Source: Candidatus Poseidoniaceae archaeon (GTDB lineage: Archaea > Thermoplasmatota > Poseidoniia > Poseidoniales > Poseidoniaceae). From it: a stretch of 64,000 nucleotides of DNA. The translations under genes were made by a program, and so were the position numbers. Numbering within the stretch: the first letter of the stretch is position 1; each line of letters starts with the position of its first letter. The DNA is taken from NCBI GenBank assembly GCA_949372875.1, contig CASIAW010000007.1:24736-88735 (forward strand). The letters run 5' to 3'. Below the pieces are notes generated by a model. It made no database searches, was not told the origin of the DNA, and worked only from the letters and a program-made list of their open reading frames with translations. Shown here piece after piece: positions 9,689-62,216 of this stretch.

Positions 9689-9761
9689 GGGTCAGTAGCT
9701 TAGTTGGGAGAGCGCGGCACTGAAGATGCCGAGGTCGCTGGTTCAAGTCCGGCCTGACCCA
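9689..9761 (+). tRNA. tRNA-Phe (anticodon GAA)
   Basis: A cloverleaf can be drawn with a 7-bp acceptor stem GGGTCAG/CTGACCC. The anticodon stem CGGCA/TGCCG carries the loop CUGAAGA (anticodon GAA). The T-arm is GGTTCAAGTCC and the discriminator is A. The 3' CCA is not encoded. Confidence 0.85.
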
Positions 9762-17206: not shown

Positions 17207-18778
<1,572 letters not shown>

Positions 18779-18867: not shown

Positions 18868-21800
18868 CTAACGGCTTCGACCCATATTGAAGATGGCTCT
18901 GGATTGAGGGGCGGTCCAACCAGTTTCTTGTAACTGCATCATGATTGAACGTTCTTCCTCTCCGTCATCAAGTGAACTTCGAACCCAATCCGCTGCGGAT
19001 TCACGGTCCTCTGTTTGCCAGTCTTCAAAGAGCGACAAATCAATTTTGAACGTCGCCTTTCGCACCTTAGCACCGCTCTCTTCTTCCTCTTTTGGTTCGG
19101 ACGGTGAATCAAAAGACGGGCGAGTTGAAACTCGGCCCCGAGGAGAAGGTTTGCTTCGTGGAGGGGTTGCTGCTTGAGGTGGGGGGGAATTAGGTCCTCG
19201 TCCTTGTGGGCCTTTAGGAGGGCTTCGGGACGGTCCAGGGCCGCCTTGAGGGCCCTTTGTCGGTCCTTTAGATGGGCCTCTGGAAGGTCCTGCTTGTGAC
19301 ACTGGAGCCCGCTTTGGCGCAGATTCTTGTGCACTTCGGCTGTTTCTAAAAGGAAGTGAATCGTCATCGTCGTCATCGTCCCAATCATCATCGTCATCGT
19401 CATCATAATCGTAATCATCACCTTGACGGCGAAGAAGAATCACTGCTACGACAAGAAGAACAACCATTCCTGCAACAACCGCAATGATGATTGTGGATGT
19501 CCCCAGCGCTGATGAGGAACCATCGTCGGAACCGGATGATCTTAACGGACAACCATCCGAATATCCATCTTCTCCCTTCGGTTCATTTTTACATTGGTCT
19601 AATTCATCGTTGACACCATCATTATCTGAATCAAGTTGACGAGGCGCACAACCATTTTCATCAACAGAAACTGATAAGGCTCGGTCTGTGCCCGGACACA
19701 AGTCTGGATAAGTCCCGTTTGGATTATCACCGTAGCCGTCGGCATCTTTATCGAACCACTGCGTAGCATTGCCAGCCAGATAAGGGAGTTCAGTAAAATC
19801 TGCATATCCATCCCCATCATCATAACATCCGTAAATATTTTCGCGTGTTGAAGTCCCAAACTCAGTTGGACAATAGTCGGAATAAATCCCATCTGGATTA
19901 TCTCCCCAGCCGTCGCCATCTAAGTCGGACCATTGCGAGCTGTTTGTAGGGAAGGCGTCACCTTGTTGGTCTTCTCGTAGACCACTGGTTTCGTTCAGCG
20001 TGTAGGTATATTCTCCAAGGTATCCATCGCCGTCTAAATCTTGTTCAAAGGCCGTTTCATCGGTACAACCATCTGCAAGAACTGGATATCCGGAAGGTGT
20101 TTCTGGACAAGCATCCACATCATCTTTCACACCATCACTATCCGAATCTCGTTCGGAAGGTGAGCATCCGTTCTCGTCCACTTCTGAACGTTCACTGTAA
20201 AGCGTCTCAGGACAGAGATCAGCAGGTCCACTCACGTTATCCAAATCGTCATCGGTCTCGAGTTGTGCATTACTACAGCCACTCGCATCAACGAGTACAC
20301 CAAACGGTGTCGACGGACAAATATCAAGGTCATTGGTAACACTGTCATCGTCGTCATCCAATTGGTTCTCTCCACATCCTACAGCATTGACGGAGAGACC
20401 TGCATCAGTATCCGGGCAGATATCTTCTGCATTCGGTACGAAATCTCCATCATCATCTGTATCATCAATAAAGCGGCATCCAATACCAGTGCCGCCTTCG
20501 GTAGGACTCGTTCCTTCAAGAACGCCGGCAATTGTTGGACATTCATCTGCTTGATAGCCCGCTGGGTTATCTCCAAAGCCATCGGAATCGAAATCCAGCC
20601 ATTGAGTTGGCTCGAGAGGGAAAGCGTCTTCGGAATTCATCCAACCGTCACCATCTGCATCAGGACATCCTGGGTAAGGACTCGTTGAATTGCCTGTCAC
20701 ACCAGGGCAGGCATCAAGCAGAAGTCCACCGCCATCATTTTCCGTGACGTCATCTGTAATGTCGTAAAACTCAGTCCATCGATCAGGATATCCGTCTGAA
20801 TCGTTGTCTTCTGCAGCCCCTATGTTATCTGGAAAACTATCAGGGTTCGTGGCGAATTGAGAACTGTTATCGCCGTAACCATCTCCGTCTGAATCAGCCC
20901 ACTGCGTGCTGTCAAATGGCCATGCATCTGCTCCATGAGATACATTCCATTCGAGGCCTCCGCTGTTAGAAGGATCTGATGAACCGTCGAGGTCGGAATC
21001 AAGGCAACCGTTTCGGTCTCGCCATGAAGCACCCCAGTCCCATTTGCAATTATCACCATCAACCCAATCAGAAGAGTTGTCTCCCCAACCATCACCGTCT
21101 TGGTCTTTGTATTGTGAAGGGTTGAATGGGAACAAGTCGCCATCTGGCTGGGACGAATCGTATTCAGTGAGGCAGCAATCAGGACCTGAATTATCCCCAT
21201 ATCCATCTCCATCGCTATCCAAAGCAAGTTTCCAATTGAAGATGAAAACATCACCAGAAAGATAGTTGAATTTGTTGTTAGACCAACCGTCTTGGTCGTA
21301 ATCATCGCAACCCATTCGGTCAATCCAAGAGTCCCCAGGGTCGTCATTACAAGCATCATCAACATCTGCATAACCATCATTGTCGTAATCGAGGCACCCG
21401 TAGGTGTAGAGCGAGGAAGGAGCATTGGTTGATGGGCAATAATCTGCTAACGGACCGAGTGTGTTATCTCCATATCCATCTCCGTCACTGTCCGACCATT
21501 GGTTTGCCAGCAGTGGTAGGTCATCGACCAAATCAAAGATGAGGTCTCTATCAGCATCAGGGTATAACCGCAAAACTTCAACGTCCCAAAGAACACTGTC
21601 TTGAATAGCAAGATGGAGGGTCTCGTTGGAATCTGTGTAGAAGCCTACTGAACCCGTAGCGGTTACATCACCGAAGGAGAGGCTGTTCCAGAAATATTCT
21701 GAAGAGGATTGACTCGAAAGAGTGGGTTGAGTGTTCAGACTGTTCCATGTAAGGAGGTTGTTTTGGCCGACGCTTGTCATCAAAACATAGGTGCCACCTT

Positions 21801-24800
21801 CAGAAGAAAGATCCCATGCTCCTTCGACCGTTGATGCAGGTTGTGAACCGAATGAATGCCAATCTAGTGAGCCGTTTCGAATGTAGATTACATCACTGTT
21901 TGAATCACCTCGGACAGCCATTGCAGGTTCAGAACCACCATTCAAATCGAGATTAAATGAGTTTATTGCGCCACTTGGCTGAGAGAGAAGAGTGGAGTTC
22001 CATGTTGAATTTTCTGCCCAAGTTGATTGATTCATTTGGCGTTCATAGAGATTCAAGGCTCCAGTAGAGGTCAGTGTAGCGACCATCATTGTTCCATCGT
22101 CTGTCATCGCGAGTTGGATGTTACTCGAGAGATCTGTTAGACTCGAAATAAAACTTGGTTCAACTGATGTTCCATCATACATCCATACGCTGAGGTTTTG
22201 GTTTTGGCCATCATTAGAAATCAAAGCGATGGCAAGATTGTCGTTAGGCATATACATTGCAGGGAAATGACTTGAGACGACCTCACCTTGAGAACCGATC
22301 ATGGCTGCGGACCATCCACCATCGTCGTGGGACATGATTAATTGGTCATCTGTTGAATCGCGGTAAAGAATGGTTGTTGCATCGCTTTGGTTGGTCAAAA
22401 CAACCAGTGGATCGACCAAATTGAGATTGGTAGCAACTTGAGTAGTTGCCCATCCCGAATCATCTTCAAGAGAGGCAAAGATTTGCTGCCCTCCGATACC
22501 TGAAGTCGCATGAGCGAGATGTTGGTGACCTTCGGAATCAAGGGCTGAGCCGAGTAAAGCCCCCATTGTTCCGGATGTAAGGATACTTTGTTCAACAGCG
22601 GTGTAACTTGATGTTGTTTGCATCTTCAGCGCCTGACCTCCTTCTGTAGAGAGAACAATCGGTCGGCCGGAACTTGTCCCAGCAAAAGCAAAGCTCGTTG
22701 AACTTGGAGATGAAGTTGAAAGCACTGTATCGGCCCATACTCCGGTAGCGGTACCGTCACTTACGTGCTCTAAGAAATGAAGAGAGTCCCAGTTCTGGAA
22801 TGAGAGGAGCATACTGGCTTCACCTCGGCTTGAGGTTGAAACATCTAAGAATTCTAACTCATCGGTATCAAATGCGAATGTAGATGATTCCCAATCACGT
22901 TCTGAGTAGAACTGGTAAACAACTCGGAATGAGGAATCAGGAATTGACTCCCGATAACTGAGACAAATCTCGTTGAGGCCATCACCATCAATATCACCAT
23001 GGGTTGCCATTGAAAGGCCTCGGTATTCTTGGGCATTGCCGGTGGCGAGTAATTCCGAATCACTGCTTAAGCCGGATGCTGAACCGAGAATAAGGTCAAC
23101 TTCACCACTGCGAGTTGCCCCTTGCTGCATAAGCAGGATATCATCATACCCATCTTCATTGACGTCGCCTGCTCCCATGAACATTCTCCCAAGCATTGCA
23201 TTGGCAGAGTCGCCTACTTTGGTCCAATTAGGGACAACAGAATGAATGCCGGAAGAAGATCCATGATACATCCATACCTTTCCGACTTGATAGCCTCCTG
23301 TGCCGTTATAGACTTCTGAAAACATCATGTCATCATATCCATCAGAGTTGATGTCCCCAATGAAATCGATTGTATGTCCGAACATCTTACCCTGGACATT
23401 CGAATCAATAGTTTGGTCTGCAATTCCGTTGAATCCAAAAGAGGCACCAAAGTAAATTTCAATCCTTGGAAAGCCACTGAATGAATCAAAACTCGCAGCA
23501 TTGGAAACAAGAAGATCATCAAACCCATCTCCGTTCAAATCCCCTGAACCACTCATTGAACGACCAAGCAGGGTTGATTCTTGCGTTTGAGTAATGTTAC
23601 GCACATGGTCCATAGACGAGGAATTTCCCTTGTAAATCGCTATCTTTCCATTGTGCACTATTTCGTTTGGAATGGTAGCAACAACTAGAGAATGATTGGC
23701 AGCAACTGCAGCGAGGTCTGCAAATCCATCACCGTTCATTCCAGCAATTGCTTCAAGTTTCCAGCCAAGAGCCTCACCTTGATTTCCAGTTACACTCCAC
23801 CACGAATTCAAACAATCAAGGCTTCCAGACGTGTTACCGAGGAAAATGTCAATTTTACCGTTATCCCCATTGGAGGAGTTCCACCCGGGTGAGCCTACAG
23901 CGATATCGACAATTCCATCTCCATTGAAATCTTCAACTGCTAAGCCCGATCCAAACCGTTGTCCTGCTTGCGTGCCATCACACAGGGTGATGGAACCATC
24001 ATGACCGAGTCCAAAGGCAGAACCGTAAGAAAGAGAGATGCGACCTGCCTCGAGGTGTTCAGTGGAATAACCGGGTTCAGAATAGATAAAGTCGTCAAAT
24101 CCGTCGCCATTGAAATCTGCCATGAAAGTGACACCTTCATCGAGGTTCTGTGAAGCGGTGGATTGGACTGGTGGCAACTGAATCTCAGAGAACTTAGGCA
24201 CCGGATTGATGCGACCTTCATCTTGTCCCGAAAGGCTTCGAAGTAATTGCACATTCGTAATGAGGTTCCCAGATCCATCGTCAACAACAGACGTCGTTGC
24301 AATTTGTTCAACAGCATTCGAATCAAGACCCATGCCAATATGTGTACCAAGGTTCGAGTCGCGAACGAGGACTCGACGGTCATATGTCGAGCCATCATAA
24401 CGAATCAAACGAACTTCTTCGCCTGCGGTGTAGAGTAAATGTGCAACACCATTATCATCCATTTCTAATTCAATAGAATGGCCGATTGGCCCTACATCAA
24501 GGAGGTCATGATACCACAAATTGCCACTGTAGTTTAATTGCCATAACGAACCATTGACATCCCGAAATACAGCATATTCCAGTTGATTCGGCAAGAGTAC
24601 CATCTCGATATCGGTTGGTCCAACATCATATCGGATGGTGATTTTTTGCCAAGAAAGTTCCGAAAAGACAGAGTTTGGATAAGCGATATGAGCTGACTTG
24701 AGATTGCTACCGTCTGCATAAAGCACATACTGACGGCCGTCTTCATTGACGGCAAGAGCGCAATCAACCAGAGAACTAGCGTTTGATGGGGTCACGGAGT

Positions 24801-25287
24801 CAACCAAATACAGCGACCAACCGGACTGAACCGACGAGTAGGATTGTTGCCCCCCGTCAAGGGAACCAACGTAGACATTCCCCTGTTCAGTTGTCCAGCA
24901 TGCATCAAAGCCTTCATCATGACTGAGTTGAATATCTGGGCGGCCCATTGTTTCATTTGGCAACATCACAAGCATTTCAGCCATCCAGAGATCTAATGCT
25001 GACTCTTCCCGAACCGTTGCATCATCTAATCCGTCGAAAGCAAGGTTGGTTCCTGCAAAATCATGGCTATATGAGTTATTGAGAGGGACATAATCGCTTG
25101 AAGAAGAAACAATGTTCTCATTAAACTCTAAGCCAGATTCTGTAGGATATTGCACCAAAGGAGAGAAGAGATGCACGACAAACAAAAAAGTGAGCAGCAA
25201 TGAAACTATTGGAAAAGGTCTGCTCGCCGCTGCCGCCATGCAACCTTGTCGGCCGGCTTCCTTGAAAACGCTTCTTGAAGATTGCAT
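18868..25287 (-). CDS. Giant (~2,139 aa) type-I membrane surface protein with integrin-alpha-like FG-GAP beta-propeller repeats, thrombospondin type-3 (TSP3) Ca-binding repeats, a TM helix and a poly-Asp plus Pro-rich cytoplasmic tail
   Basis: The predicted signal peptide is MAAAASRPFPIVSLLLTFLFVV, from ATG 25239, with alternative starts at 25287 and TTG 25425. At least six FG-GAP-like repeats (e.g. ...DFNGDGIVDIAVG...) form the propeller. Many DxDxDGxxDxxDxCP TSP3-like repeats follow. The TM is IIIAVVAGMVVLLVVAVILL, followed by RRQGDDYDYDDDDDDDWDDDDDDD and then a PxxP-rich tail. Confidence 0.85.
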   Translation of the reverse strand: MQSSRSVFKEAGRQGCMAAAASRPFPIVSLLLTFLFVVHLFSPLVQYPTESGLEFNENIVSSSSDYVPLNNSYSHDFAGTNLAFDGLDDATVREESALDLWMAEMLVMLPNETMGRPDIQLSHDEGFDACWTTEQGNVYVGSLDGGQQSYSSVQSGWSLYLVDSVTPSNASSLVDCALAVNEDGRQYVLYADGSNLKSAHIAYPNSVFSELSWQKITIRYDVGPTDIEMVLLPNQLEYAVFRDVNGSLWQLNYSGNLWYHDLLDVGPIGHSIELEMDDNGVAHLLYTAGEEVRLIRYDGSTYDRRVLVRDSNLGTHIGMGLDSNAVEQIATTSVVDDGSGNLITNVQLLRSLSGQDEGRINPVPKFSEIQLPPVQSTASQNLDEGVTFMADFNGDGFDDFIYSEPGYSTEHLEAGRISLSYGSAFGLGHDGSITLCDGTQAGQRFGSGLAVEDFNGDGIVDIAVGSPGWNSSNGDNGKIDIFLGNTSGSLDCLNSWWSVTGNQGEALGWKLEAIAGMNGDGFADLAAVAANHSLVVATIPNEIVHNGKIAIYKGNSSSMDHVRNITQTQESTLLGRSMSGSGDLNGDGFDDLLVSNAASFDSFSGFPRIEIYFGASFGFNGIADQTIDSNVQGKMFGHTIDFIGDINSDGYDDMMFSEVYNGTGGYQVGKVWMYHGSSSGIHSVVPNWTKVGDSANAMLGRMFMGAGDVNEDGYDDILLMQQGATRSGEVDLILGSASGLSSDSELLATGNAQEYRGLSMATHGDIDGDGLNEICLSYRESIPDSSFRVVYQFYSERDWESSTFAFDTDELEFLDVSTSSRGEASMLLSFQNWDSLHFLEHVSDGTATGVWADTVLSTSSPSSTSFAFAGTSSGRPIVLSTEGGQALKMQTTSSYTAVEQSILTSGTMGALLGSALDSEGHQHLAHATSGIGGQQIFASLEDDSGWATTQVATNLNLVDPLVVLTNQSDATTILYRDSTDDQLIMSHDDGGWSAAMIGSQGEVVSSHFPAMYMPNDNLAIALISNDGQNQNLSVWMYDGTSVEPSFISSLTDLSSNIQLAMTDDGTMMVATLTSTGALNLYERQMNQSTWAENSTWNSTLLSQPSGAINSFNLDLNGGSEPAMAVRGDSNSDVIYIRNGSLDWHSFGSQPASTVEGAWDLSSEGGTYVLMTSVGQNNLLTWNSLNTQPTLSSQSSSEYFWNSLSFGDVTATGSVGFYTDSNETLHLAIQDSVLWDVEVLRLYPDADRDLIFDLVDDLPLLANQWSDSDGDGYGDNTLGPLADYCPSTNAPSSLYTYGCLDYDNDGYADVDDACNDDPGDSWIDRMGCDDYDQDGWSNNKFNYLSGDVFIFNWKLALDSDGDGYGDNSGPDCCLTEYDSSQPDGDLFPFNPSQYKDQDGDGWGDNSSDWVDGDNCKWDWGASWRDRNGCLDSDLDGSSDPSNSGGLEWNVSHGADAWPFDSTQWADSDGDGYGDNSSQFATNPDSFPDNIGAAEDNDSDGYPDRWTEFYDITDDVTENDGGGLLLDACPGVTGNSTSPYPGCPDADGDGWMNSEDAFPLEPTQWLDFDSDGFGDNPAGYQADECPTIAGVLEGTSPTEGGTGIGCRFIDDTDDDGDFVPNAEDICPDTDAGLSVNAVGCGENQLDDDDDSVTNDLDICPSTPFGVLVDASGCSNAQLETDDDLDNVSGPADLCPETLYSERSEVDENGCSPSERDSDSDGVKDDVDACPETPSGYPVLADGCTDETAFEQDLDGDGYLGEYTYTLNETSGLREDQQGDAFPTNSSQWSDLDGDGWGDNPDGIYSDYCPTEFGTSTRENIYGCYDDGDGYADFTELPYLAGNATQWFDKDADGYGDNPNGTYPDLCPGTDRALSVSVDENGCAPRQLDSDNDGVNDELDQCKNEPKGEDGYSDGCPLRSSGSDDGSSSALGTSTIIIAVVAGMVVLLVVAVILLRRQGDDYDYDDDDDDDWDDDDDDDSLPFRNSRSAQESAPKRAPVSQAGPSRGPSKGPTKGPQGGPGPSRSPPKGPQGRGPNSPPPQAATPPRSKPSPRGRVSTRPSFDSPSEPKEEEESGAKVRKATFKIDLSLFEDWQTEDRESAADWVRSSLDDGEEERSIMMQLQETGWTAPQSRAIFNMGRSR

Positions 25288-25291
25288 CCAT

Positions 25292-25310
25292 TGACCCCCG
25301 TAGGGGGTCA
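25292..25310. promoter_or_regulatory. 19-bp perfect palindrome TGACCCCCGTAGGGGGTCA in the divergent region between the giant FG-GAP/TSP3 gene and the TPK gene
   Basis: The palindrome has 8-bp arms and a 3-nt centre. It lies about 50-70 nt upstream of the predicted signal-peptide start (25239) of the giant gene. A near-identical copy sits at 30807-30825. Confidence 0.5.
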
Positions 25311-25386
25311 TAACAACAAACTGCAAAACCATCGTTTTGAACCGCTCAATGGATGGGTTTGACAAGATGGACAACCTCGCCGGAGC

Positions 25387-26019
25387 ATGGCGGGAGAGCG
25401 ATATGTGATCATCGCCAATGGTCATTGGCCTAAAGAGGCAATATGGAGACCGTTAGTCGAAGATTCGGACCACGTCATGGCGTGTGATGGAGCGGCCGTT
25501 CAGTGTATTGAACACAAGGTTACAATGAATTCCATTATCGGCGACATGGATAGTCTACCGATTGAAATTGAATCGAAACTCAAACAAGAAGAAGAAATTC
25601 AATTTTTTGAACAAACGATTCAAGAAGAAAACGACTTGGTCAAAGCCATCCATTGGGCGATTAAACAAGGAGCCTCTCAGATCGAAGTATTCGGAATCGA
25701 AGGCGGAGATATGTCCCATCAATTTGCAGCTTTTTTAGCACTGTGTGAAGTCCCATTTCACACTCGATTAAACACATCGCAGGGCACCATTGAACTCATC
25801 CCGAAAAGTGGATATAGAAACTGCTCTATAGAAAAGAAGAGGCTCTTCTCCCTCTTCGCAATAGGGGCTGTTGAAGGCATCAAAACCTCGGGCGCAAAAT
25901 GGAATCTCAAAAACGAAGAGTTACGTCCTGGAACACGAGGCCTCCACAATCAAGTCGAGGGAGAATGTCTTGAGATCAGTATGGATTCTGGTCAACTACT
26001 TCTCTTCTTGAACCGTTGA
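25387..26019 (+). CDS. Thiamine pyrophosphokinase (TPK family)
   Basis: Motifs ACDGAA...IIGDMDSL, QEENDLVKAI and GIEGGDMSHQFAAF fit the TPK fold. The 210-aa length also fits. Confidence 0.7.
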   Translation: MAGERYVIIANGHWPKEAIWRPLVEDSDHVMACDGAAVQCIEHKVTMNSIIGDMDSLPIEIESKLKQEEEIQFFEQTIQEENDLVKAIHWAIKQGASQIEVFGIEGGDMSHQFAAFLALCEVPFHTRLNTSQGTIELIPKSGYRNCSIEKKRLFSLFAIGAVEGIKTSGAKWNLKNEELRPGTRGLHNQVEGECLEISMDSGQLLLFLNR

Positions 26020-35622: not shown

Positions 35623-35958
35623 TCATACGTTGTCCCAGTCAAGGTCAATACCAGCCACAGGCTGAGTGTCAGCCGCTGAGTCTTCAAGAACTGGCTTTGC
35701 TGAATCAAGTATTTCTTCTTCTGCAAGAACCTCTTCTGCACCTTCAACTGCACCACCTTCAAGTTCGTCTCGCTTTTTGTCATCGTTCGAAGAAGGTTTG
35801 AAACCGCCGAATGAATCCCAAGTGTCAATCATTGCAAGTTCAGCCTTCTTTTGACGACGTAATGCAATAACGGCAATAACGACAAGAATACCGACGAAAC
35901 CTGAAGTGGCTGCAACGAACATGGCAACTCTGCTGTCGGATTCCGCCTGCTTCAACAT
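35623..35958 (-). other. Detached C-terminal TM anchor plus acidic cytoplasmic tail of the upstream 1,554-aa adhesin, lying in a different reading frame. This implies a frameshift near 35940-35990.
   Basis: The segment encodes ...AESDSRVAMFVAATSGFVGILVVIAVIALRRQKKAE plus an acidic tail. This is the same TM-RR-acidic architecture seen at the C-termini of the other giant surface proteins. The big ORF instead ends in the nonsensical Cys/Arg-rich tail CHVRCSHFRFRRYSCRYCRYC. Confidence 0.55.
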
Positions 35959-38900
35959 AGAGTGTGATACTGAGAATATCGATCATCGGGTCAGCGCCTG
36001 TCCCGTCGGTTGCAATGACTTTCAAATTCGGACGACCTGCAGCATCAGGGTTCATCTCAACGCTGCCTTCCCAGTAGCCATCACCGTCTTCATCTGTGAG
36101 ATTAAACGCCCAGTTCTGAACGTTAAAAACAACCGTTGCTCGAACACTTTGAGTCGTCCCATCAGGGTCACTCATCATCACTCGAACAGAAAAAGTGTTT
36201 TTCTGTTGTGCAAGAAGTGTATCTGGCATAACGGTGAGATTGGAAAGTTTTGGAAGACTCGATTGAACTGTAATGTTGGTATGAACTTCGTCACTTGCTC
36301 CACGGCTGTCTTCGACATAGAGTGAGAGGTGATGCTGACCCGGAGGGAGTTGAATCGAATCAGTACTCATGGTTGAGACGATTTCATAGTCTCCAGTAAC
36401 CAACCACCGGCGCCATTCACGTGTTTCCATATCACCATCAGCATCGGAAGACTGCTCTTCTAAGACCACAAATTCACCAGGTGCTACCGAGAAGAGATTT
36501 GACGGTTGAAGTAAGAGTGCAACGGGGTCTGATTGTCCAATTGTAAGACTCACGAAGGAGATTTGTTCATCTCCGGTGTCATCTGTAAGAGTGATTTTGA
36601 TGGTGTGCTCTCCAGCAGGAAGAGGTGAAGAGTGAACTTGAGAGGTCGAAACATCACTCAACAATGGCTCAGTGAGCAAATCACTTCGAATGGTCATTGT
36701 AAACGAATCGCCGTCATAATCCACCGATTGGCGAGCGTCCCATTGAATCGGGTAACTGGAAGAATAGGCATCGCCGTCGGCAGGGGAATCGAGAGTTAAT
36801 TGCGGCGCCGAAGTCAGAACTTCAACGGTTCGTGAAACGTTGACTGGCTGATGTATGCCATCATCGAGACTGAGCGTTATCGTGTGCGTTCCAGCACTCA
36901 AACGCCCCTCGAAAATGAGCCAGTCTTCACCCTCTGGAGTAAGGCGTCCGTCCAAATCGCTGTTCCAAACCACAACCAAATATTCCGAGCCGCTGAAAGG
37001 TTCTGAATCAGCACAATGCCAGATTCCATCCATTGGGAAGGTAGAGCATGCAGAATCGTAATCACCCGAAGAATTAGCAGAGAACCATATCAGTTCCGAG
37101 GATACGTACGTTTGTGTGGAAAGTGGAGTTTCAATATTTGACTGTGGAAGCGAATTCTCAACGTCCACTAGCAGCGACGCAACCTTTGTGTCGTTGATAT
37201 GTTCTGGTCGGTTATCGACTACCCTCATTTCTATAGAATGAACGCCTCTGGAAAGGTGTCCAGTCCACGTTTTGCCGGCCTCGGTATTATTCCAGGAGAG
37301 TTGACCGTCAAGGCTTGACCAAAATTCAACCTCAAGAATATCCCCCTCAGGGTCGATAGTTGCCGTTCCATCGAGTGTGACTTCATCTTCACTAGCATTC
37401 CCAAGACGAGTTAATGTGAACACGGGGTCTGGAACTTCATTATACAGTTCTACTGGAATTGTGTACGTGGATGGAGGGTTAATGCCATCAGAGGCGTAAA
37501 TCACTACATCAAAAGTAGAAGGAACTGTTTCAGCCATTGAAAGGTTCATCCAAATTTCTGTGGGACAGTCGGTGATTGAACTTTCTGAGGTAACCGATTG
37601 ATACGAGCGGTCAATCCAACACGACAGCGTATCTCCTTCTGGATCAAAAGTTCCAGTGAGGTTGAAGAGAACATGTTGGGTTCGGGGAATCACAAGTTCT
37701 GACCATGGCGTCAATTCAGGAGTAACCTCGAAGACAATTGTAGGCGCTTGATTGACAAGTTCGATTGTTCGGCTTTCAGAAACACAGTGTCCGTAATCGT
37801 CACATATTTCCAAAGAGATGATATGAATTCCATCTGAGAGAGTGCAATTCCCTGCATGGTTCCCATTTACAGTGAATGGATACCCTCTCGTCACATTGTA
37901 TTGATTTTCAAACCCTTGACCTTGCCCAGTGCAAGATGCCAAAATATCGCCATCGAGGCTACTTGTCCATGCGAAAGTAAGTTCATCGTCATCGAGATCC
38001 CAAGAATCTGAGGCATTGAATTCGACAGAGCCTTGCGATGAGAACACCGAAGAATCAGAGGGAGAAGTCCACATGAGGAAAGGTGGTTGATTGTCGAGAG
38101 GGAGAACGCAATTGACAAATCGGTCTTGATCAAGCGTTACAGTCGTAGAATTGGATACACTGTCGTATCCACAGGAAACGGTCACTGTTGTGAAACTCGA
38201 AGCGCCCGTATTGGTCCATCGTTGACCTATGAAGTTTGGAAGAGAGCGATAACCGAACTCATTGCTCGAGTCTTGAACCGTGCTTTCAAATTGGGAAAAA
38301 GCGGCCTCAACATTTGCCCTTGGAACACCGTTACTGTTGTTATTTATGACCCAGACATTGATGTCATAAGCAACATCTACGGTTGCACCGGATGCGATGG
38401 TTGGATACGATTGGTTCAAATCGATGTTCACAGGTTGATGTAAATGCAAATTCGAATTCGAATCGAGTTGGAGAAGGGTTGAAGTCAGCCCAGAATCTGT
38501 AAATCCGGACCAATTCACCTGACTGTTAACAAATTGTATTGTTCCTGTACAATCCGTGGCAATTGCATTCCCATTTCCGGACAGGTCAAGGTGGTTTGAA
38601 ATCTGAAGACAGCCAGTACCACTGAAAGAGCTGTTACTAAGTTCTGAAGGGTAATTGTTGTTGTTTTGGCCATCCCATTCAATTCCTGAATGGTTACCAT
38701 ACATCATCAATCCATCAATTGAAGCGGCGGCTTGGTTGATGAGTAGTGCAGGTGCTCCCGCCCCACTTCCTCGCTCGGTGTGGATTTCAAGGTCTTCGAT
38801 GTGGATGACGCCTCCTTGTTGACCGAGATTTAAGCCAGAGTTGTCTGCCGCAAGCGGTGCGAAATCTTCTCCATTTTCAGCGAGATAAATATCGCTTAAC

Positions 38901-40504
38901 CAAAGGTCTGCTGAATCACGAATGAGAATACCAGAGCCTGCAGAGCCAGTCACCTCACAATTGGAACAACCAACATCAAGTTGAGGGTGAGTTACAGTCT
39001 TTGAGCGATCGAAAAACATCCCTGCTTTTTGGTCATCCGTATTTCCATTCAATCCGTTGTTCGTCACTGTGAGGTTTTGCAGGTCAGTATCAATATTGTC
39101 GAGGAGATGAACACCAGAATGACCGTTATTCTCCATTGTTGAATCATGAATACTCACTGAGGAATAATCCAAGTATAATCCATCTTCAGAGTTATTGTGA
39201 AGATATAATCCACTTGCTTCCCATTCCGCTTTGTATGAATGTATGCCCGGTCCGACTGAGCCCGATATTTCAAGACCGTCAAACACGGGAGCTGATGTAA
39301 AAATCCACGTAATAGCAAGACCTGCTTTATGCGGACCTTGACCTGGGTCCCCCGAATCGCGAATGGTAAGGTTACGGAACGTCGTCGATGAATCGGCATA
39401 ATACAAACGCACACCTGTCGAGGTGGAGTTTTCAATCAGCGTGTTCTCAAACCAAGCTCCGGTTGAGTTGACATCGATTGCTGCATACGCAATGTTGGCC
39501 GTCTTTGCTCCAACTCCACCAGTGCCTGTTACGGTTAAGTTTGTGAAATCAGCTGTTTCATAATTGGTATAATTGGAGTGGTTTTCTTTATCGACATAAA
39601 CGCCTCGATACATGGAATTAGAGACAGTACAATCTCTGAAGACTGCACGAGTGTATCCACTGTCATCAATATGGCGAACGACGATGCCATAGTCTGAACG
39701 GTCGACAGTCAAGTTGATCAACAACGGCTGGCTATCTTCAATCCAAACGCCTGCTGAAATCTCCCAACTCGAGCCACTGATATTACTCATTACAAGATTA
39801 CGCAGAATGCCACCGGAGCCACCCCAGATGTTGATTGCTCGAGTAAGGTGGTCAGTGAAGGTGGCACCGTCGACAATTGGAGTCGAACCAGAACCAATCG
39901 ATAAGCCCAAACCGTATCTCCAATCACCTTGGAAAGGGAGAACTCGTCCCGCTTGGTTGATGACTAAATCATATATTTGCGGTGCAGAATTGCTGAACAT
40001 GTCAATGCCAACACGGTCTGGATTGAGGATGGTTAAATTATGAATCACTGGGTTTGCACCATACATTGTAATACCGTATATTGAATCTTCAATCGACAGA
40101 TTGTTGAGGACGGAACCTCGATTGTTTGAACTGCTGTTGAATTGGATACCCTCATGGTCAGAACCCGTCAATGAACTCAACGTAACGGGACACGTAACTG
40201 TACCTTCAACTGTTAAACGCCCTTCGACATAAAGTCGAGCACCTGAGCCCATTTCGACTTGTGTACACGCTGAAATAATCAATTCATCAAAGACCGAGAC
40301 CGTATATGTGGAAGTGATTGTGACCGAACCTGTCCACGTTGTCTGAGCACGAGCACTAGTGGACTCTGGTATGAGAGAAATCTCTAATTCAGTCGAAGGC
40401 TCCTCTCCGTCATAAACTGAAGAAGATAGACTCGTGAAAGGGGCTCCGAGCATCAAAAAAAGAACAATCCAAATCCCAAAAGAAGAACGATTTTGAAGGT
40501 CCAT
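35840..40504 (-). CDS. Giant (~1,554 aa) secreted adhesin-like protein with a right-handed parallel beta-helix (pectin-lyase-like/PbH1) region followed by multiple Ig/PKD-like domains. It is probably disrupted near the C-terminus.
   Basis: A signal-peptide-like N-terminus MDLQNRSSFGIWIVLFLMLGAPFTS follows ATG 40504 (alternatives 40528/40645). Periodic N..G....S repeats mark the beta-helix, and long Thr/Ser-rich beta domains follow. The C-terminal 40 aa are non-biological, indicating the frameshift. Confidence 0.8.
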   Translation of the reverse strand: MDLQNRSSFGIWIVLFLMLGAPFTSLSSSVYDGEEPSTELEISLIPESTSARAQTTWTGSVTITSTYTVSVFDELIISACTQVEMGSGARLYVEGRLTVEGTVTCPVTLSSLTGSDHEGIQFNSSSNNRGSVLNNLSIEDSIYGITMYGANPVIHNLTILNPDRVGIDMFSNSAPQIYDLVINQAGRVLPFQGDWRYGLGLSIGSGSTPIVDGATFTDHLTRAINIWGGSGGILRNLVMSNISGSSWEISAGVWIEDSQPLLINLTVDRSDYGIVVRHIDDSGYTRAVFRDCTVSNSMYRGVYVDKENHSNYTNYETADFTNLTVTGTGGVGAKTANIAYAAIDVNSTGAWFENTLIENSTSTGVRLYYADSSTTFRNLTIRDSGDPGQGPHKAGLAITWIFTSAPVFDGLEISGSVGPGIHSYKAEWEASGLYLHNNSEDGLYLDYSSVSIHDSTMENNGHSGVHLLDNIDTDLQNLTVTNNGLNGNTDDQKAGMFFDRSKTVTHPQLDVGCSNCEVTGSAGSGILIRDSADLWLSDIYLAENGEDFAPLAADNSGLNLGQQGGVIHIEDLEIHTERGSGAGAPALLINQAAASIDGLMMYGNHSGIEWDGQNNNNYPSELSNSSFSGTGCLQISNHLDLSGNGNAIATDCTGTIQFVNSQVNWSGFTDSGLTSTLLQLDSNSNLHLHQPVNIDLNQSYPTIASGATVDVAYDINVWVINNNSNGVPRANVEAAFSQFESTVQDSSNEFGYRSLPNFIGQRWTNTGASSFTTVTVSCGYDSVSNSTTVTLDQDRFVNCVLPLDNQPPFLMWTSPSDSSVFSSQGSVEFNASDSWDLDDDELTFAWTSSLDGDILASCTGQGQGFENQYNVTRGYPFTVNGNHAGNCTLSDGIHIISLEICDDYGHCVSESRTIELVNQAPTIVFEVTPELTPWSELVIPRTQHVLFNLTGTFDPEGDTLSCWIDRSYQSVTSESSITDCPTEIWMNLSMAETVPSTFDVVIYASDGINPPSTYTIPVELYNEVPDPVFTLTRLGNASEDEVTLDGTATIDPEGDILEVEFWSSLDGQLSWNNTEAGKTWTGHLSRGVHSIEMRVVDNRPEHINDTKVASLLVDVENSLPQSNIETPLSTQTYVSSELIWFSANSSGDYDSACSTFPMDGIWHCADSEPFSGSEYLVVVWNSDLDGRLTPEGEDWLIFEGRLSAGTHTITLSLDDGIHQPVNVSRTVEVLTSAPQLTLDSPADGDAYSSSYPIQWDARQSVDYDGDSFTMTIRSDLLTEPLLSDVSTSQVHSSPLPAGEHTIKITLTDDTGDEQISFVSLTIGQSDPVALLLQPSNLFSVAPGEFVVLEEQSSDADGDMETREWRRWLVTGDYEIVSTMSTDSIQLPPGQHHLSLYVEDSRGASDEVHTNITVQSSLPKLSNLTVMPDTLLAQQKNTFSVRVMMSDPDGTTQSVRATVVFNVQNWAFNLTDEDGDGYWEGSVEMNPDAAGRPNLKVIATDGTGADPMIDILSITLYVEAGGIRQQSCHVRCSHFRFRRYSCRYCRYCITSSKEG

Positions 40505-40619
40505 GTCTTCCGCTGTATGAAAGAGCATTTGAAGGGTTCTATGAAATGTGAGAAACGGTATCATTGAGCCCAAGAGTTTCCTTCGATAGCAATAAGACCG
40601 GTCCGCAATTCGGCTGTTT

Positions 40620-40853
40620 ATGCCCGAAGCGTTTGTGTTGTTCAAAACCCAACCTGCTCACGAGCGAGAAGTCTACCTTTCATTGATGGAACATTCAGCC
40701 GTTGCGGAAGTTCATGCACTTTACGGTGAATTTGATTTAGTCGTTCGTTTGTCTGTGGAAAACTCCCAAAACCTCACCAAAATGTTGATGACCGATTTTC
40801 GCCAAATCCAAGGAGTTAAAGATACTCAAACACTGATTGCAGTGGAATACTGA
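40620..40853 (+). CDS. Stand-alone Lrp/AsnC ligand-binding (RAM) domain protein, 77 aa
   Basis: The protein shows the betaalphabetabetaalphabeta RAM pattern: VLFKTQPAHEREVYLSLMEHSAVAEVHALYGEFDLVVRLSVENSQNLTKMLMTDFRQIQGVKDTQTLIAVEY. It has no HTH. Confidence 0.7.
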   Translation: MPEAFVLFKTQPAHEREVYLSLMEHSAVAEVHALYGEFDLVVRLSVENSQNLTKMLMTDFRQIQGVKDTQTLIAVEY

Positions 40854-58661: not shown

Positions 58662-59579
58662 TCAAATGAGTTCAAAAGGTGAAGATGCTAACTTTTTAGC
58701 CGTTTTCACAGCGTCAACGCAAGCCAAATAATCTCCATTGGGGATCAACATTCCTTCTTCACTCTTCATGACTTGTCCATTCAAGTCAAGGATTTGATAT
58801 CCTGAATCAAATAGAATTTGGAACACTTCTTGAGAACTGCGTTGAATCGATTCAAGAAGGGTTTCTTGTAATTCAAATAAAATGTAATCAATTTTTTTCT
58901 CGCCAAGGAGTGTTTGAGCACCGAGAAGAACATCTGATTCGAAACCTTCAACATCTATTTTGAGGAAATGAATTCGTTCAATCGAAAGTTCACGAGAGAC
59001 ATCGTCCATTGTGCGGACTTGAACTTTGATTTTATCGACGGTTGGACTGTTGTCGACATCACCAAGTGAATGGTGGCCGTGAAACCCTTTGACATGCAAC
59101 TGCATTTCTGTCTGCTCTTTACCTAGAGCCATTTGATGCAAAGTAATGTTCTGATTGTTCCTCATCTTCATTTGCGAGTTGATGGTTGAGACGTTTTCTG
59201 GATGAGGCTCGAATGCATGAACATGTTCACAGCGCTGGGAAAACCAGTGGCTTACTACGCCCATATTCGCTCCAACATCAAAGATCATACTCTGCTTATG
59301 GATGAGCGGCTGAATGCGGTCAAGCCATGGAACTGCATCGCATGCTTTACCGGAATTTAAACTCCAATCAAGCCGCTCACCGTAGCTCAGTACCCGAACC
59401 AAACCTCGTTCTTTATCATGAACCAATAATTCCAAATCACTGCTCGCAATTTTTCGGTCGAGCATGGGATAAAAAACCAATCGATTAAACAACCTGCCGG
59501 GAGTTCGGAGGCCATAAAAAAAAGCACGAGCGGGGAGGCTTCGTTTCTTTTCAATATTCGACATCTGCAAATCCCTCAA
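58662..59579 (-). CDS. FkbM-family methyltransferase
   Basis: FDVGANMGVVSHWFSQRCEHVHAFEPHPEN is the FkbM/Methyltransf_21 signature. Confidence 0.8.
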   Translation of the reverse strand: MRDLQMSNIEKKRSLPARAFFYGLRTPGRLFNRLVFYPMLDRKIASSDLELLVHDKERGLVRVLSYGERLDWSLNSGKACDAVPWLDRIQPLIHKQSMIFDVGANMGVVSHWFSQRCEHVHAFEPHPENVSTINSQMKMRNNQNITLHQMALGKEQTEMQLHVKGFHGHHSLGDVDNSPTVDKIKVQVRTMDDVSRELSIERIHFLKIDVEGFESDVLLGAQTLLGEKKIDYILFELQETLLESIQRSSQEVFQILFDSGYQILDLNGQVMKSEEGMLIPNGDYLACVDAVKTAKKLASSPFELI

Positions 59580-59677: not shown

Positions 59678-60286
59678 TCAGAACGTTGATTGCCATTCTT
59701 CCAAGTCTTGGGAAGCAGCCCAATCTTCATCGGTCGTTTTTCCACGAACCTTGAGAACTTCACGAGCGAGAAGCCAGTAAATCAAAGCGAGTGAACGGCG
59801 ACCTTTGTTGTTTGCAGGAAGTGCGATATCGACATTGCGAAGATTGTTGTTTGCATCAACAATTCCAACGATTGGCAAACCGGAGTTGACCGCTTCTCGA
59901 AGTGCTTGTTGGTCAGCAGCAGGGTCGGTTACAAACAAGACATCAGGCTCAACATAGGAGCGGAGAACTGGATTGGTAAGAGAACCTGGAATAAATCGGC
60001 CAACAGCCGCATTTGCACCAATTGCTTCAGAAAACAATCGAGCAGGACGCTGACCATATTGACGTGCTGAAACAACCATGATTCGAGAAGGGTCATACTT
60101 GTTGAGGAACTCAGCAATGGAACGAATTCGAGAGTCGGTCATGTTGACATCGAGAAGGTAAAGTCCGTCTTCACGAACACGTTCAATGAAACGAGCCATG
60201 TCAGCACTCTTTTGTTGAGTACCAATATTGACAGCATTCTCCTCATAGGATTCAAAGGGTAAGAGTAAGTTCATTTCCTCGGACAT
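59678..60286 (-). CDS. rps2: 30S ribosomal protein uS2 (archaeal/eukaryotic-type S2)
   Basis: The 202-aa protein carries ...RIMVVSARQYGQRPARLFSEAIGA...DPAADQQALREAVNSGLPIVGIVDANNNLRNVDIALPANNKGRRSLALIYWLLAREVL, which is typical of archaeal uS2. Confidence 0.9.
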   Translation of the reverse strand: MSEEMNLLLPFESYEENAVNIGTQQKSADMARFIERVREDGLYLLDVNMTDSRIRSIAEFLNKYDPSRIMVVSARQYGQRPARLFSEAIGANAAVGRFIPGSLTNPVLRSYVEPDVLFVTDPAADQQALREAVNSGLPIVGIVDANNNLRNVDIALPANNKGRRSLALIYWLLAREVLKVRGKTTDEDWAASQDLEEWQSTF

Positions 60287-60442
60287 GGCAATTCCTCAGC
60301 AGTCACCCGACTTGGACTCTATATTAAACCGCTTCGTAGAGAGGCGGGATGATTTCAACTGCAACCTCAAGGAGATTTAAGCGGGATTGCCATGGGAGAA
60401 CTCAAAGCCTGAAGCAAGTCTGTTGAGGTAGAGGGGGGGTTT

Positions 60443-61624
60443 GTGATGGAAGATAATTCGACAGAAAACGGGCCACCGAAGGCCACAGTTTCTGAAGACG
60501 GGATTTGGCGAGATGAACAAGGAGTCGCACTCCCCGTCAGTGCTAGCGATTTAGAGCGCCATGAATATTGTCCATTGTCTTGGTCATTATCACGTCAAGG
60601 AAATTCCGGCCAAGGAGAAGCCATCGTCGCCGGCATCAAAAGACACGCCCAAATTCATGAGCAAATGAAGGACTTTCAATTCATTCAAACTCAAATGCGT
60701 CGTTCAGTTACAGTTTGGACCTGGTGGTTTTCAGTCATCATTGCATTGACAATCGATGCAGTGGCTTTCAATTTCATTGATGATGTCACTACGCCTTTGC
60801 AAATGGCCCGATACCTCGCCATGTGGGCTGCAGCCACCCTCATCGTAGGGTTAATTGCCATTTCAGTACCTTGGCGCTCATGGATTGGTTTGAGCGAAAC
60901 TATCCCTCGGCAAAAAACAAAATTACTATCGAGAAATGAGGAATTTAAGCCTTTTTGGGAACCTAAAGGGTTTATCGGTGGCTGGTTTGAAGCAGGCCGT
61001 GTTGAAGCAAGTCTACTGTTTGGTTCAATCGTTTTAGGATTACACGCTATTGCCTTGGCAGGTGCTGATGATCGAAACCAAGCGGCTTTCATATTGTTCG
61101 TGACCGCAATGGCATGGACTCTTGCTGCCTCATGGCAACTACAACGAATGTTGTTGTCTGACAATGCTCTCGAGTCAATGAAAAAGGATATCGATATTCA
61201 AACGGATGACGAAGTAGCATATTCAGATGATGATGCAACGTCAAATCTTCTGGTCGATGAAAACATTGGCTTGAGAGGTCGACCAGACCAAATTGTCATT
61301 GTCGATGGAGAGTTTATTCCCGTTGAACAAAAGACCGGTAAGGTCCCCATAAATCCTCACCCCTCGCACCGAATGCAATTACTCGCTTACCTACACCTCG
61401 TGGAAAAAAATACCAACAAAAGTGCCCCCTATGGAGTTCTGCGTTATGGTGAAACAAACCTTCACCAAATACCATGGAACGATGTAGCCAAAAAGGAATT
61501 GAAGAGTGCAGTTAAAGAAATTCAGCGCCTCATGGTCCAAGGAGGAGCATTACGTAACCACAACCGTCCAGGAAAGTGCAAAAACTGCTCAAGGCTATAT
61601 GCGTGCGAGGATTCACTTGTCTGA
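60443..61624 (+). CDS. Cas4-like PD-(D/E)xK Fe-S nuclease with a ~200-aa insertion containing four transmembrane helices
   Basis: The N-terminal Cas4 motifs are SASDLERHEYCPLSW and GEAIVAGIKRHAQIHE. Four TM helices follow. The C-terminal Cas4 motifs are GRPDQIVIVDGEFIPVEQKTGK (D..E.K), QLLAYLHL (QxxxY) and CKNCSRLYAC (CxxCx5C). Confidence 0.65.
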   Translation: MMEDNSTENGPPKATVSEDGIWRDEQGVALPVSASDLERHEYCPLSWSLSRQGNSGQGEAIVAGIKRHAQIHEQMKDFQFIQTQMRRSVTVWTWWFSVIIALTIDAVAFNFIDDVTTPLQMARYLAMWAAATLIVGLIAISVPWRSWIGLSETIPRQKTKLLSRNEEFKPFWEPKGFIGGWFEAGRVEASLLFGSIVLGLHAIALAGADDRNQAAFILFVTAMAWTLAASWQLQRMLLSDNALESMKKDIDIQTDDEVAYSDDDATSNLLVDENIGLRGRPDQIVIVDGEFIPVEQKTGKVPINPHPSHRMQLLAYLHLVEKNTNKSAPYGVLRYGETNLHQIPWNDVAKKELKSAVKEIQRLMVQGGALRNHNRPGKCKNCSRLYACEDSLV

Positions 61625-61625
61625 A

Positions 61626-62216
61626 TCAAATGCATGCATCTTCAAGCGGATATTGTATGCATGTTCGTTTGATGGTGATTTCAATTCGAAAGGAGTCTTG
61701 AGCTGCAGAGTTTTCAATGCCTGCCCCCCGTGCTGAGATTTCAAGTCTCCATGTCCCAGTTTCAAACGTTGGAGTTGGGGCGATATTCGCAGTTGCTGCA
61801 CCTAAGTCCTCACACACATCAATCGACCAAGCCGGTTGATCGTTCGGGCCCGCATTTGGAGCCCAAAGTTCTGCGCGAACATAGCGAGTAAAATTTTCTA
61901 AGCAACCGATGAATTCAGACCCTTGAACCGTTACCTTTCGGAATACAAGAATCTCCGAAACAGTCTCATCTATCTCGAAGGTGGAGACGTTTTCATACGA
62001 TTCCCAGTCCTCTGGGTTCAAAGTACTGAATGCTTTAAAATGAGTGATTTTGATAGACTCAGACTTCGTTTCAGGCTCCCCGCGAAGACTCTCTATCGTC
62101 TCACGTGCTTGTAGGAGGCCTAAACATCCAGAAGTACTGCTGAGAAGAAAAATCATCACCATGAGGATTGGCAGAGACCAACTCTTCTTCATGGCGCGGC
62201 TAGGCTCCACCCACAT
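61626..62216 (-). CDS. Secreted hypothetical protein (196 aa) with an N-terminal signal peptide
   Basis: The signal peptide is MKKSWSLPILMVMIFLLSSTSGCLG. There is no recognisable domain. Confidence 0.55.
   Translation of the reverse strand: MWVEPSRAMKKSWSLPILMVMIFLLSSTSGCLGLLQARETIESLRGEPETKSESIKITHFKAFSTLNPEDWESYENVSTFEIDETVSEILVFRKVTVQGSEFIGCLENFTRYVRAELWAPNAGPNDQPAWSIDVCEDLGAATANIAPTPTFETGTWRLEISARGAGIENSAAQDSFRIEITIKRTCIQYPLEDACI

Follow-up and report, generated by a model that had tools for sequence, protein, structure and literature searches.

A Cas4-family nuclease of Poseidoniales archaea with a predicted four-helix membrane insert in its catalytic domain

Descriptions of Cas4-family nucleases have to date concerned soluble enzymes that serve CRISPR adaptation, alongside 'solo' copies of unknown role, and Cas4, Dna2, AddB, MGME1 and EXO5 are established end- or flap-processing nucleases. 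Here, we analyzed a Cas4-family gene at positions 60443-61624 (+) of a 64,000-nucleotide stretch of DNA from Candidatus Poseidoniaceae archaeon (contig CASIAW010000007.1), the whole of which is referred to as the window. We find that the Cas4 domain encoded by this gene is very probably split by a four-helix insert in the cytoplasmic membrane. As the best combined explanation, at a probability of roughly 0.6, we propose a membrane-built solo Cas4-family nuclease with a housekeeping role at DNA ends or flaps.

In the Cas4 survey of Hudaiberdiev et al. 2017 (PMC5704561), 'transmembrane' is a word that does not occur. The Solo-Cas4 of M. mazei (PMC12501428) holds a [4Fe-4S] cluster and shows metal-dependent DNA cleavage; it was reported as a soluble 30.7-kDa oligomer without a RecB motif, membranes are never mentioned, and we rejected it as a described counterpart because it is soluble. 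Our literature search returned no description of a membrane-inserted or transmembrane (TM)-split Cas4, although its coverage was incomplete and an earlier description is possible. Three leads from the literature, namely the DUF2779 Cas4-like/DEDD fusion of JCVI-syn3.0, an archaeal 'dark matter' paper and Cas4-like genes of Bathyarchaeia viruses, turned out to be unrelated. In the source annotations, the proteins are named 'Cas4' or 'Dna2/Cas4 domain-containing', with the membrane part unmentioned. The original prediction for this locus, made from the sequence alone, had called the architecture undescribed, which agrees with the literature search; the architecture is nevertheless not unique, as it belongs to a large family whose members already carry the label 'Cas4' in annotation pipelines.

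The Cas4 domain and its membrane insert

The gene and the features of its product, a protein of 393 amino acids (aa), are as follows.

60443-61624 (+): open reading frame (ORF) of the predicted membrane-split Cas4-family nuclease, 393 aa from GTG, with Pfam and NCBIfam Cas4 matches
60443-60523 (+): Poseidoniales-specific N-terminal extension, residues 1-27, variable except for A14, W22 and R23 (mean majority-residue frequency 0.49)
60524-60694 (+): N-terminal nuclease piece, residues 28-84, with SASDLERHEYC43PLSW and G64..H68..H72
60707-60775 (+): predicted TM helix 1 (TM1), residues ~89-111, with invariant W92, W94, W95 and D105, continuous with the His helix
60803-60874 (+): predicted TM helix 2 (TM2), residues ~121-144, ending at invariant P143-W144-R145
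60875-60994 (+): predicted cytoplasmic loop, residues ~145-184, rich in lysine and arginine (mean of 4.65 K+R), of low model confidence
60998-61063 (+): predicted TM helix 3 (TM3), residues ~186-207, with invariant E188 and H201
61079-61147 (+): predicted TM helix 4 (TM4), residues ~213-235, continuing as a stalk helix into the core
61211-61621 (+): PD-(D/E)xK nuclease core, residues 257-393
61286-61333 (+): catalytic D282 ... E295-x-K297 (RecB motifs II and III), assigned by residue conservation
61577-61606 (+): C-terminal iron-sulfur (Fe-S) cluster cysteines C379, C382 and C388, invariant

The protein passed the curated cut-offs of both Cas4 profiles, with 40.1 bits for PF01930 Cas_Cas4 (cut-off 22.7; residues 274-388, profile positions 52-158 of 160) and 67.4 bits for TIGR00372 cas4 (cut-off 65; residues 265-389, profile positions 55-179 of 180). 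Because these matches begin at profile positions ~52-55, the first ~50 positions are absent from the C-terminal stretch. Residues 16-77, in turn, weakly match the start of the AdnA nuclease domain, which is the region of the first cluster cysteine (E 0.08). Deletion of residues 85-246 in silico yielded a 204-aa spliced protein with one colinear TIGR00372 match over positions 4-179 of 180 (71.2 bits), which indicates that the N-terminal piece and the core make up one complete Cas4 domain. After removal of the insert, the N-terminal piece corresponds to profile positions ~4-50, and the insert falls between positions ~50 and ~52. Spliced relatives from a short 4-TM class scored 80-88 bits over TIGR00372 positions 5-179, and two of three also matched PF01930, from position 4 or 7 to 158. 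Searched with phmmer against PDB, the spliced protein had only weak matches (E ~0.09), uninformative beside those of the profiles. Cas4 membership, as originally predicted from both segments, is thus borne out by the profiles.

The Cas4/DUF83 hallmark motifs occur in the order that had been proposed. The core carries Y260-S-D262, G279-R-P-D282, E295-Q-K297, Q312-x3-Y316, R371-N-H373 and C379-x2-C382-x5-C388. In 22 Poseidoniales homologs of 58-100% identity, C43 (of YCP), G64/H68/H72, D282, E295-x-K297, Q312-x3-Y316 and C379-x2-C382-x5-C388 are invariant. We then extended the alignment to 76 sequences by 54 distant Thermoplasmata relatives at 26-33% identity, in which the hallmark residues remain invariant except for H72 and E295, the latter being kept in at least 90%. 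Judged by these motifs, C43 would be the first Fe-S cysteine and G64..H68..H72 a putative helix with the metal-ligand histidine; C43, C379, C382 and C388 appear positioned for an Fe-S cluster, which the nuclease protein probably binds. As a separate observation, a conserved Cys directly follows the QxxxY Tyr in all non-Poseidoniales classes (AAYCLL), while Poseidoniales have Leu or Ile in this column, that of L317 (LAYLHL, LAYIHL).

At ~162 aa (residues 85-246), the insert that separates the N-terminal Cys/His piece from the catalytic core is shorter than the ~200 aa given in the original prediction. It contains four hydrophobic segments (~89-111, 121-144, 186-207 and 213-235), each of at least 21 residues and with no more than one charge, with Kyte-Doolittle 19-residue peaks of 1.53-2.11, an Eisenberg mean hydrophobicity (<H>) of 0.57-0.74 and a hydrophobic moment of at most 0.13. 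For comparison, <H> did not exceed 0.04 in three soluble helices of this protein that served as controls, and its maximum outside the insert was 0.25. The mean K+R count was 11.2 in the N-flank, TM2-3 loop and C-flank versus 2.0 in the TM1-2 and TM3-4 loops, and the 'inside' sum was larger than the 'outside' sum in 65 of 66 sequences, following the positive-inside rule. This charge pattern predicts a cytoplasmic location for both nuclease pieces, which would also suit Fe-S cluster assembly. The computed helix lengths (at least ~20 residues), charge distribution and pass number are those of a multi-pass helical membrane protein, and hydrophobicity and charge together support the four TM helices that had been predicted between the N-terminal Cys motif and the core.

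The helix number is informative across the family. Among 325 relatives with an N-terminal Cys and a C-terminal CxxCx5C, 324 contain one or more hydrophobic segments between the two; two segments were counted in 37 proteins, four in 216, eight in 24 and three in 44. The 44 counts of three are read as threshold misses, because all of them lie within two 4-TM length classes whose majority count is four. An even number of passes is a requirement of a split cytoplasmic domain, and the relatives indeed mostly have even numbers (2, 4, 8). The 8-TM inserts (P0294, P0142 and P0134; e.g. locus L006:6001-7662) are internal tandem duplications of a 4-TM unit: aligned half against half, they scored 44-62 bits, above all 200 block-shuffled controls (z 3.9-6.3).

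TM4 is the best-conserved helix (conservation 0.85), and its W225 is invariant in the 76 sequences. The small-residue motif W225-T-L-A-A-S of TM4 is common to all other classes, and the variants WTLAAS, WLIGAS, MLAAAY, LLAGAT and LLGALA recur in the last TM helix of fused and Methanofollis split representatives; such a motif would suit helix-helix packing. The loop motif G179-G-W-F-E-A-G185 is invariant except for E183 (at least 90%), and the short 4-TM class lacks the cytoplasmic loop. A Pfam scan of the insert in every class found no family, only sub-threshold noise (VUPS, DUF2339, tetraspanin and others). Within Poseidoniales, mean identity to the window protein is 0.63 for the insert versus 0.70 for the nuclease pieces.

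An AlphaFold model computed from the 76 sequences reached a mean predicted local distance difference test score (pLDDT) of 76.3 and a predicted template modelling score of 0.60, with residues 11-50 at pLDDT 84-92 and the core at 78-96. It superseded an earlier run on 22 sequences of at least 58% identity (pLDDT 62.9), which was of low confidence precisely at the Fe-S parts. The predicted model has a Cas4/RecB-like fold, with Cas4, Dna2, MGME1, ACE1 and EXO5 as best Foldseek matches, and continuous helices 58-111 and 211-250 connect the nuclease pieces with TM1 and TM4, respectively.

Split-gene relatives and genomic setting

Independent support for both the split-domain and the membrane readings comes from relatives in which the two nuclease pieces are encoded by separate genes. 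Methanofollis formosanus has a fused 2-TM form of 274 aa (P0236; WP_220682637.1) between an RNase H gene, with a 4-nt overlap, and a TrmO-like gene. In an uncultured Methanofollis, the same locus order reads RNase H, a 78-aa ORF, a 186-aa 'Cas4' and TrmO. The two middle ORFs overlap; the 78-aa ORF encodes SAAEIADFAYCALSW...GMQKH and then one TM helix, and in the 186-aa protein a single TM helix at the start precedes the entire core. A metagenome-assembled genome (MAG) of Anaerolineae is equally split into an 89-aa ORF and a 179-aa protein, with an NAD-dependent DNA ligase gene directly downstream. A reading of the ~180-aa relatives in Methanofollis as normal Cas4 proteins lacking the insert was rejected, because the alignment shows no N-terminal piece and a TM helix at the start; this alignment led to the finding of the split genes. 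The loci concerned are listed below.

L093:5768-6561 and L094:2616-3409: uncultured Methanofollis
L095:1681-2497: Anaerolineae MAG
L096-L175: metagenomic loci

The metagenomic sample comprises 80 loci, 72 of them with upstream sequence. Among the latter, an adjacent ORF for the N-terminal piece was present in 45, one ~209-aa HEAT-like gene lay between the two parts in 9, the protein was fused in 7, and the N-terminal piece was not detected in 11, so that 54 of the 72 are split in total. The split ORFs consist of an upstream one of 78-103 aa (Cys/His piece plus one TM helix) and an often overlapping one of ~170-186 aa (one TM helix plus core), and the core-only proteins carry the annotation 'Cas4'. 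The N-terminal Cys thus comes from a separate small ORF, and each half has exactly one TM helix. With the Cys/His piece and the core on separate single-pass proteins, the two fragments must meet in the membrane to form a four-cysteine Cas4 domain. Two-gene versions would accordingly represent a rare natural case of a soluble enzyme fold rebuilt from two membrane-anchored fragments. The three-gene variant was seen at L132, L136, L141, L149 (e.g. L149:4364-4993), L158, L160, L164, L167 and L171; its ~209-aa helical-repeat protein has a single Pfam match, to PDS5/HEAT-like repeats, which stays below the threshold.

In 90%-identity clusters, the homologs of the window protein number 1,097, the best 120 of which are all at least 58% identical, and named members belong to Poseidoniales/Poseidoniaceae or to MAGs labelled only as Euryarchaeota. 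An exhaustive profile search retrieved 1,093 cluster representatives at E <= 1e-3, 96 of them at E <= 1e-30. By Poseidoniales-specific peptide patterns, relatives are present in at least 186 species-representative genomes, including the MG-II chromosome CM001443.1. Synteny was counted in 80 Poseidoniales loci, the few exceptions including loci with incomplete flanks: the uS2 gene is divergent upstream in 79, a 196-aa-type protein gene is convergent downstream in 79, and a zinc-ribbon protein gene follows in 78. The nuclease gene is therefore a vertically inherited, single-locus core gene of Poseidoniales. Other Thermoplasmata MAGs have the short 4-TM form (~331 aa) and the 8-TM form (~550 aa), and further forms occur in Poseidoniia (marine 2-TM), Methanofollis, the Anaerolineae (Chloroflexota) MAG and many untyped metagenome contigs. 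The neighbors differ between classes.

Short 4-TM class: TPD-domain gene; GlmS- and GlmU-like genes
8-TM class: gene for a 1,447-aa unknown protein
Marine 2-TM class: NTPase_1, Trm1, an RNA polymerase subunit L family gene and TruD
Methanofollis class: RNase H and TrmO
Split class: a translin-like gene in 13 loci, at -2; NAD kinase in 21 loci within +1 to +3, including 15 at +1; a membrane protein with a B-box zinc finger in 11 loci, mainly at +2; RecN in 8 loci, at +3 or +4

Examples of the recurrent gene cluster around the split nuclease in L096-L175 are L157:1776-2429, L143:1016-1888, L136:5893-6420 and L167:3085-4821. A relative of 635 aa (P0220; cluster members P0421 and P0422) combines multiple TM helices and the Cas4 core with a C-terminal TRAM domain (PF01938, 57 bits).

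In the window, the nuclease gene has the following surroundings.

59678-60286 (-): ribosomal protein uS2 gene, divergent upstream neighbor, with no evidence for a functional link
60287-60442: intergenic region, divergent with the uS2 gene, with A/T-rich TATA-like stretches and a purine-rich run right before the start codon (by sequence inspection)
61626-62216 (-): gene for a 196-aa protein, convergent downstream; the N-terminus is hydrophobic and leads into SSTSGC, which resembles a signal or lipobox sequence

The uS2 neighbor named in the original prediction is thus part of the conserved synteny. The intergenic region may act as the promoter region. A database protein (P0001) is 100% identical to the ORF product and has 392 aa from the ATG at 60446, which is probably the start codon. 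The gap between the nuclease gene and the 196-aa gene is ~1 nt in the window and 7-34 nt in relatives. Pfam and PADLOC scans of the 196-aa protein gave no family match, and the protein type keeps its position in Poseidoniales though identity is just 29-63%.

Several other features of the window were recorded. An FkbM-type methyltransferase gene (58662-59579, -) lies between Dus and uS2; because only 7 of 80 related Poseidoniales loci have one, it represents a lineage-specific insertion into otherwise kept synteny. A tRNA gene (9689-9761, +; RF00005, 67.7 bits) is the sole Rfam family match. At 5941-6230, a GC-rich tandem repeat array of CCGCCACCG-type with periods of 12-102 lies inside an ORF (5778-7409, -), and its minus-strand translation would be a Gly-rich stretch of low complexity. 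The ORF 17207-18775 (-) contains several short tandem repeats in frame (periods 9-24) at 17335-17880, which suggest a repetitive, possibly surface-exposed protein. Two ORFs are very large (18868-25422, -, ~2,185 aa; 35840-40642, -, ~1,600 aa), and the remainder is of housekeeping type, with glycosyltransferases, beta-oxidation enzymes, an M32 carboxypeptidase, PPK2, NFACT, an RNase PH-domain protein and one DEAD-box helicase.

Proposed mechanism and alternative explanations

In our working model, two antiparallel helices of the Cas4 fold would be lengthened into TM1 and TM4, one bearing the metal-ligand His and the other leading into the first core strand, and an extra TM2-TM3 hairpin with its cytoplasmic loop would lie between them. 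With an even number of passes through the membrane, both nuclease pieces would be cytoplasmic and could pack into one Cas4 domain, in which C43 would join C379, C382 and C388 around the cluster. The active site (H68, D282, E295, K297, Q312 and Y316) would then sit on a two-helix stalk near the inner membrane face. DNA ends or flaps are the likely substrate, since Cas4, Dna2, AddB, MGME1 and EXO5 all process ends or flaps, and the nuclease is predicted to trim DNA ends or single-stranded flaps of membrane-located DNA in a metal-dependent manner. The geometry of reassembly, cluster binding, nuclease activity, substrate and biological role are our inferences from these comparisons.

As to the role, we tentatively favor membrane-proximal DNA repair, recombination or replication-linked processing, at slightly less than even odds. 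The RNase H, DNA ligase, RecN and translin genes next to relatives favor such housekeeping DNA maintenance. Several points weigh against this proposal. The repair-type neighbors come from distant relatives (~30-38% core identity) and not from Poseidoniales, whose own neighbors (uS2, a secreted-looking small protein and a zinc-ribbon protein) are uninformative on function. No partner gene is conserved across classes, and NAD kinase and RecN are by themselves a common bacterial gene pair, so that their proximity may be incidental. Core constitutive nucleases such as RecBCD and AddAB may also defend the cell, and repair and defense are not mutually exclusive. Finally, the conserved polar residues D105, E188 and H201 in the Poseidoniales TM helices hint at a membrane part that does more than anchor, and the proposal explains neither these residues nor the conserved GGWFEAG loop, which the short 4-TM class lacks.

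The nuclease might instead form a membrane barrier against foreign DNA, degrading free viral or plasmid ends on entry, either as constitutive innate defense or as abortive infection triggered by membrane disturbance. We regard this as unlikely. It would fit the activity of Cas4-family enzymes on free DNA ends and the end-processing nucleases among the Foldseek matches; the membrane would be the first place reached by incoming linear DNA, and the strong conservation of the TM region with its invariant polar residues may exceed the needs of anchoring. The PADLOC Cas4 and DruK models also match the protein, but only at the generic nuclease core. Furthermore, defense genes are typically located in variable islands, whereas this is a core, single-locus, vertically inherited gene that keeps its housekeeping neighbors in fixed order in 78-79 of 80 genomes, and its relatives adjoin RNase H, ligase, RecN and tRNA-modification genes. 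The window holds no defense-system partners: PADLOC matches elsewhere in it (BrxH, DpdF, Cas3, HamB and DrmD) were rejected as a defense system, with one member each and most being helicase-type models, and may be attributed to the single DEAD-box helicase. A scan of IMG/VR viral contigs found no relatives. The original prediction had left the choice between a membrane-associated DNA-processing and a defense nuclease; the neighbors of relatives favor the former, while context and distribution give no positive support for the latter.

A further, quite unlikely reading makes the TM helices an assembly and control element, the core becoming competent only once the TM helices of the N-terminal piece and the core pair in the bilayer. 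Activity could then, with equally little expectation on our part, be gated by the state of the membrane, for example by its potential, the packing of its lipids or a disturbance caused by a virus on entry or by a DNA translocon. If true, this would define a previously unrecognized class of membrane-gated DNA nucleases with a core function in abundant ocean archaea.

A role in DNA uptake or exchange, in which the tethered nuclease would trim or degrade one strand of imported DNA to serve natural transformation or the use of environmental DNA as food, is very unlikely. The position at the inner face and a fold acting on single-stranded DNA or 5' ends would suit hand-over from a translocon, and the relative P0220 carries the TRAM nucleic-acid-binding domain. 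However, none of the loci examined has competence, pilus or DNA-translocase genes beside it, and the TM helices vary in number (1+1, 2, 4, 8), which speaks against the insert having a conserved role as a channel.

That the gene encodes a true CRISPR adaptation Cas4 located away from its cas operon, as automatic annotations imply, is highly improbable. The TIGR00372 'equivalog' cut-off is passed and several sources use the Cas4 name, but the score lies just above that cut-off (67.4 versus 65), and the family has motifs of its own and a membrane insert that solved Cas4 proteins lack. The 64-kb window contains no CRISPR array, its tandem repeats being of short period and inside predicted ORFs, and no cas genes by PADLOC and Pfam, cas1 and cas2 included, as the original prediction had noted for the vicinity; likewise, gene tables or synteny showed neither cas genes nor arrays in the flanks of over 90 related loci. 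The adjacent cas1/cas2, other cas genes or array that mark a CRISPR-associated Cas4 are thus missing, and the gene is a Solo-Cas4 in the sense of a Cas4-family gene outside cas loci. The pipeline label 'CRISPR-associated Cas4' on thousands of such proteins, for instance in Poseidoniales, therefore wrongly implies CRISPR immunity.

We give almost no credence to a soluble protein with the insert as a buried helical subdomain, or to an annotation or assembly artefact, for which the low confidence of the earlier, shallow AlphaFold run could be cited, given the length, hydrophobicity, near-zero amphipathicity and low charge of the four segments, the positive-inside pattern, the mostly even helix counts, the single helix kept in each split half, and the recurrence of this ORF, identical or nearly so, on many separate contigs and in the species genomes counted above; the hydrophobic segments thus behave as TM helices rather than as a buried core, as originally predicted.

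Comparison with known systems

Marine Group II archaea are globally abundant in the ocean. Together, the relatives point to a large lineage with its catalytic domain threaded through the membrane (with 1+1, 2, 4 or 8 TM helices) in Thermoplasmatota including Marine Group II, in Methanofollis and in Anaerolineae. The fused and split Methanofollis pairs and the single-locus Marine Group II core gene are starting points for work on a DNA end-processing nuclease at the membrane.

Nucleases are known at membranes from other systems. EndA and NucA are competence nucleases at the membrane that act on host or external nucleic acids and have unrelated folds. The mycoplasma membrane nucleases (PMC12115388) are likewise located at the cytoplasmic membrane and reportedly also act on host or external nucleic acids with unrelated folds, whereas the catalytic domain of the window protein is predicted to be cytoplasmic and interrupted by TM helices. 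The literature consulted reported no other catalytic domain interrupted in this way.

The nuclease domains of Dna2, AddB/AdnA, MGME1, EXO5 and ACE1 are structural neighbors and belong to iron-sulfur or related end-processing enzymes of replication and repair. None of them is known to be membrane-integrated, and the window protein lacks helicase or accessory domains and is closer in sequence to Cas4 proper. The superfamily 1 helicase that is fused to or partnered with Dna2 and AddB/AdnA is absent here, both as a domain and as an adjacent gene.

Solo-Cas4 genes (PMC5704561; PMC12501428) are likewise Cas4-family genes outside cas loci; in contrast to the M. mazei protein, the window protein keeps the RecB motif and is predicted to be membrane-integrated. 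Fold and catalytic set are shared with Cas4 itself (PF01930/TIGR00372/COG1468), and Cas4 structures, e.g. SSO0001 (4IC1), Pcal_0546 and the type I-C and Geobacter Cas4-Cas1-Cas2 complexes (8D3L, 7MI4), are the best structural matches of the model. The family adds YxD before the core, SH after ExK and RNHxRxGKC before the Cys cluster. Unlike the solved soluble Cas4 proteins, which form a contiguous single domain of ~160-220 aa, the window protein has the ~162-aa insert with four TM-type helices and is not associated with cas1/cas2 or an array. The chemistry is thus as expected for Cas4, and what is unusual is the architecture; the gene is also a core gene in a dominant marine archaeal lineage.

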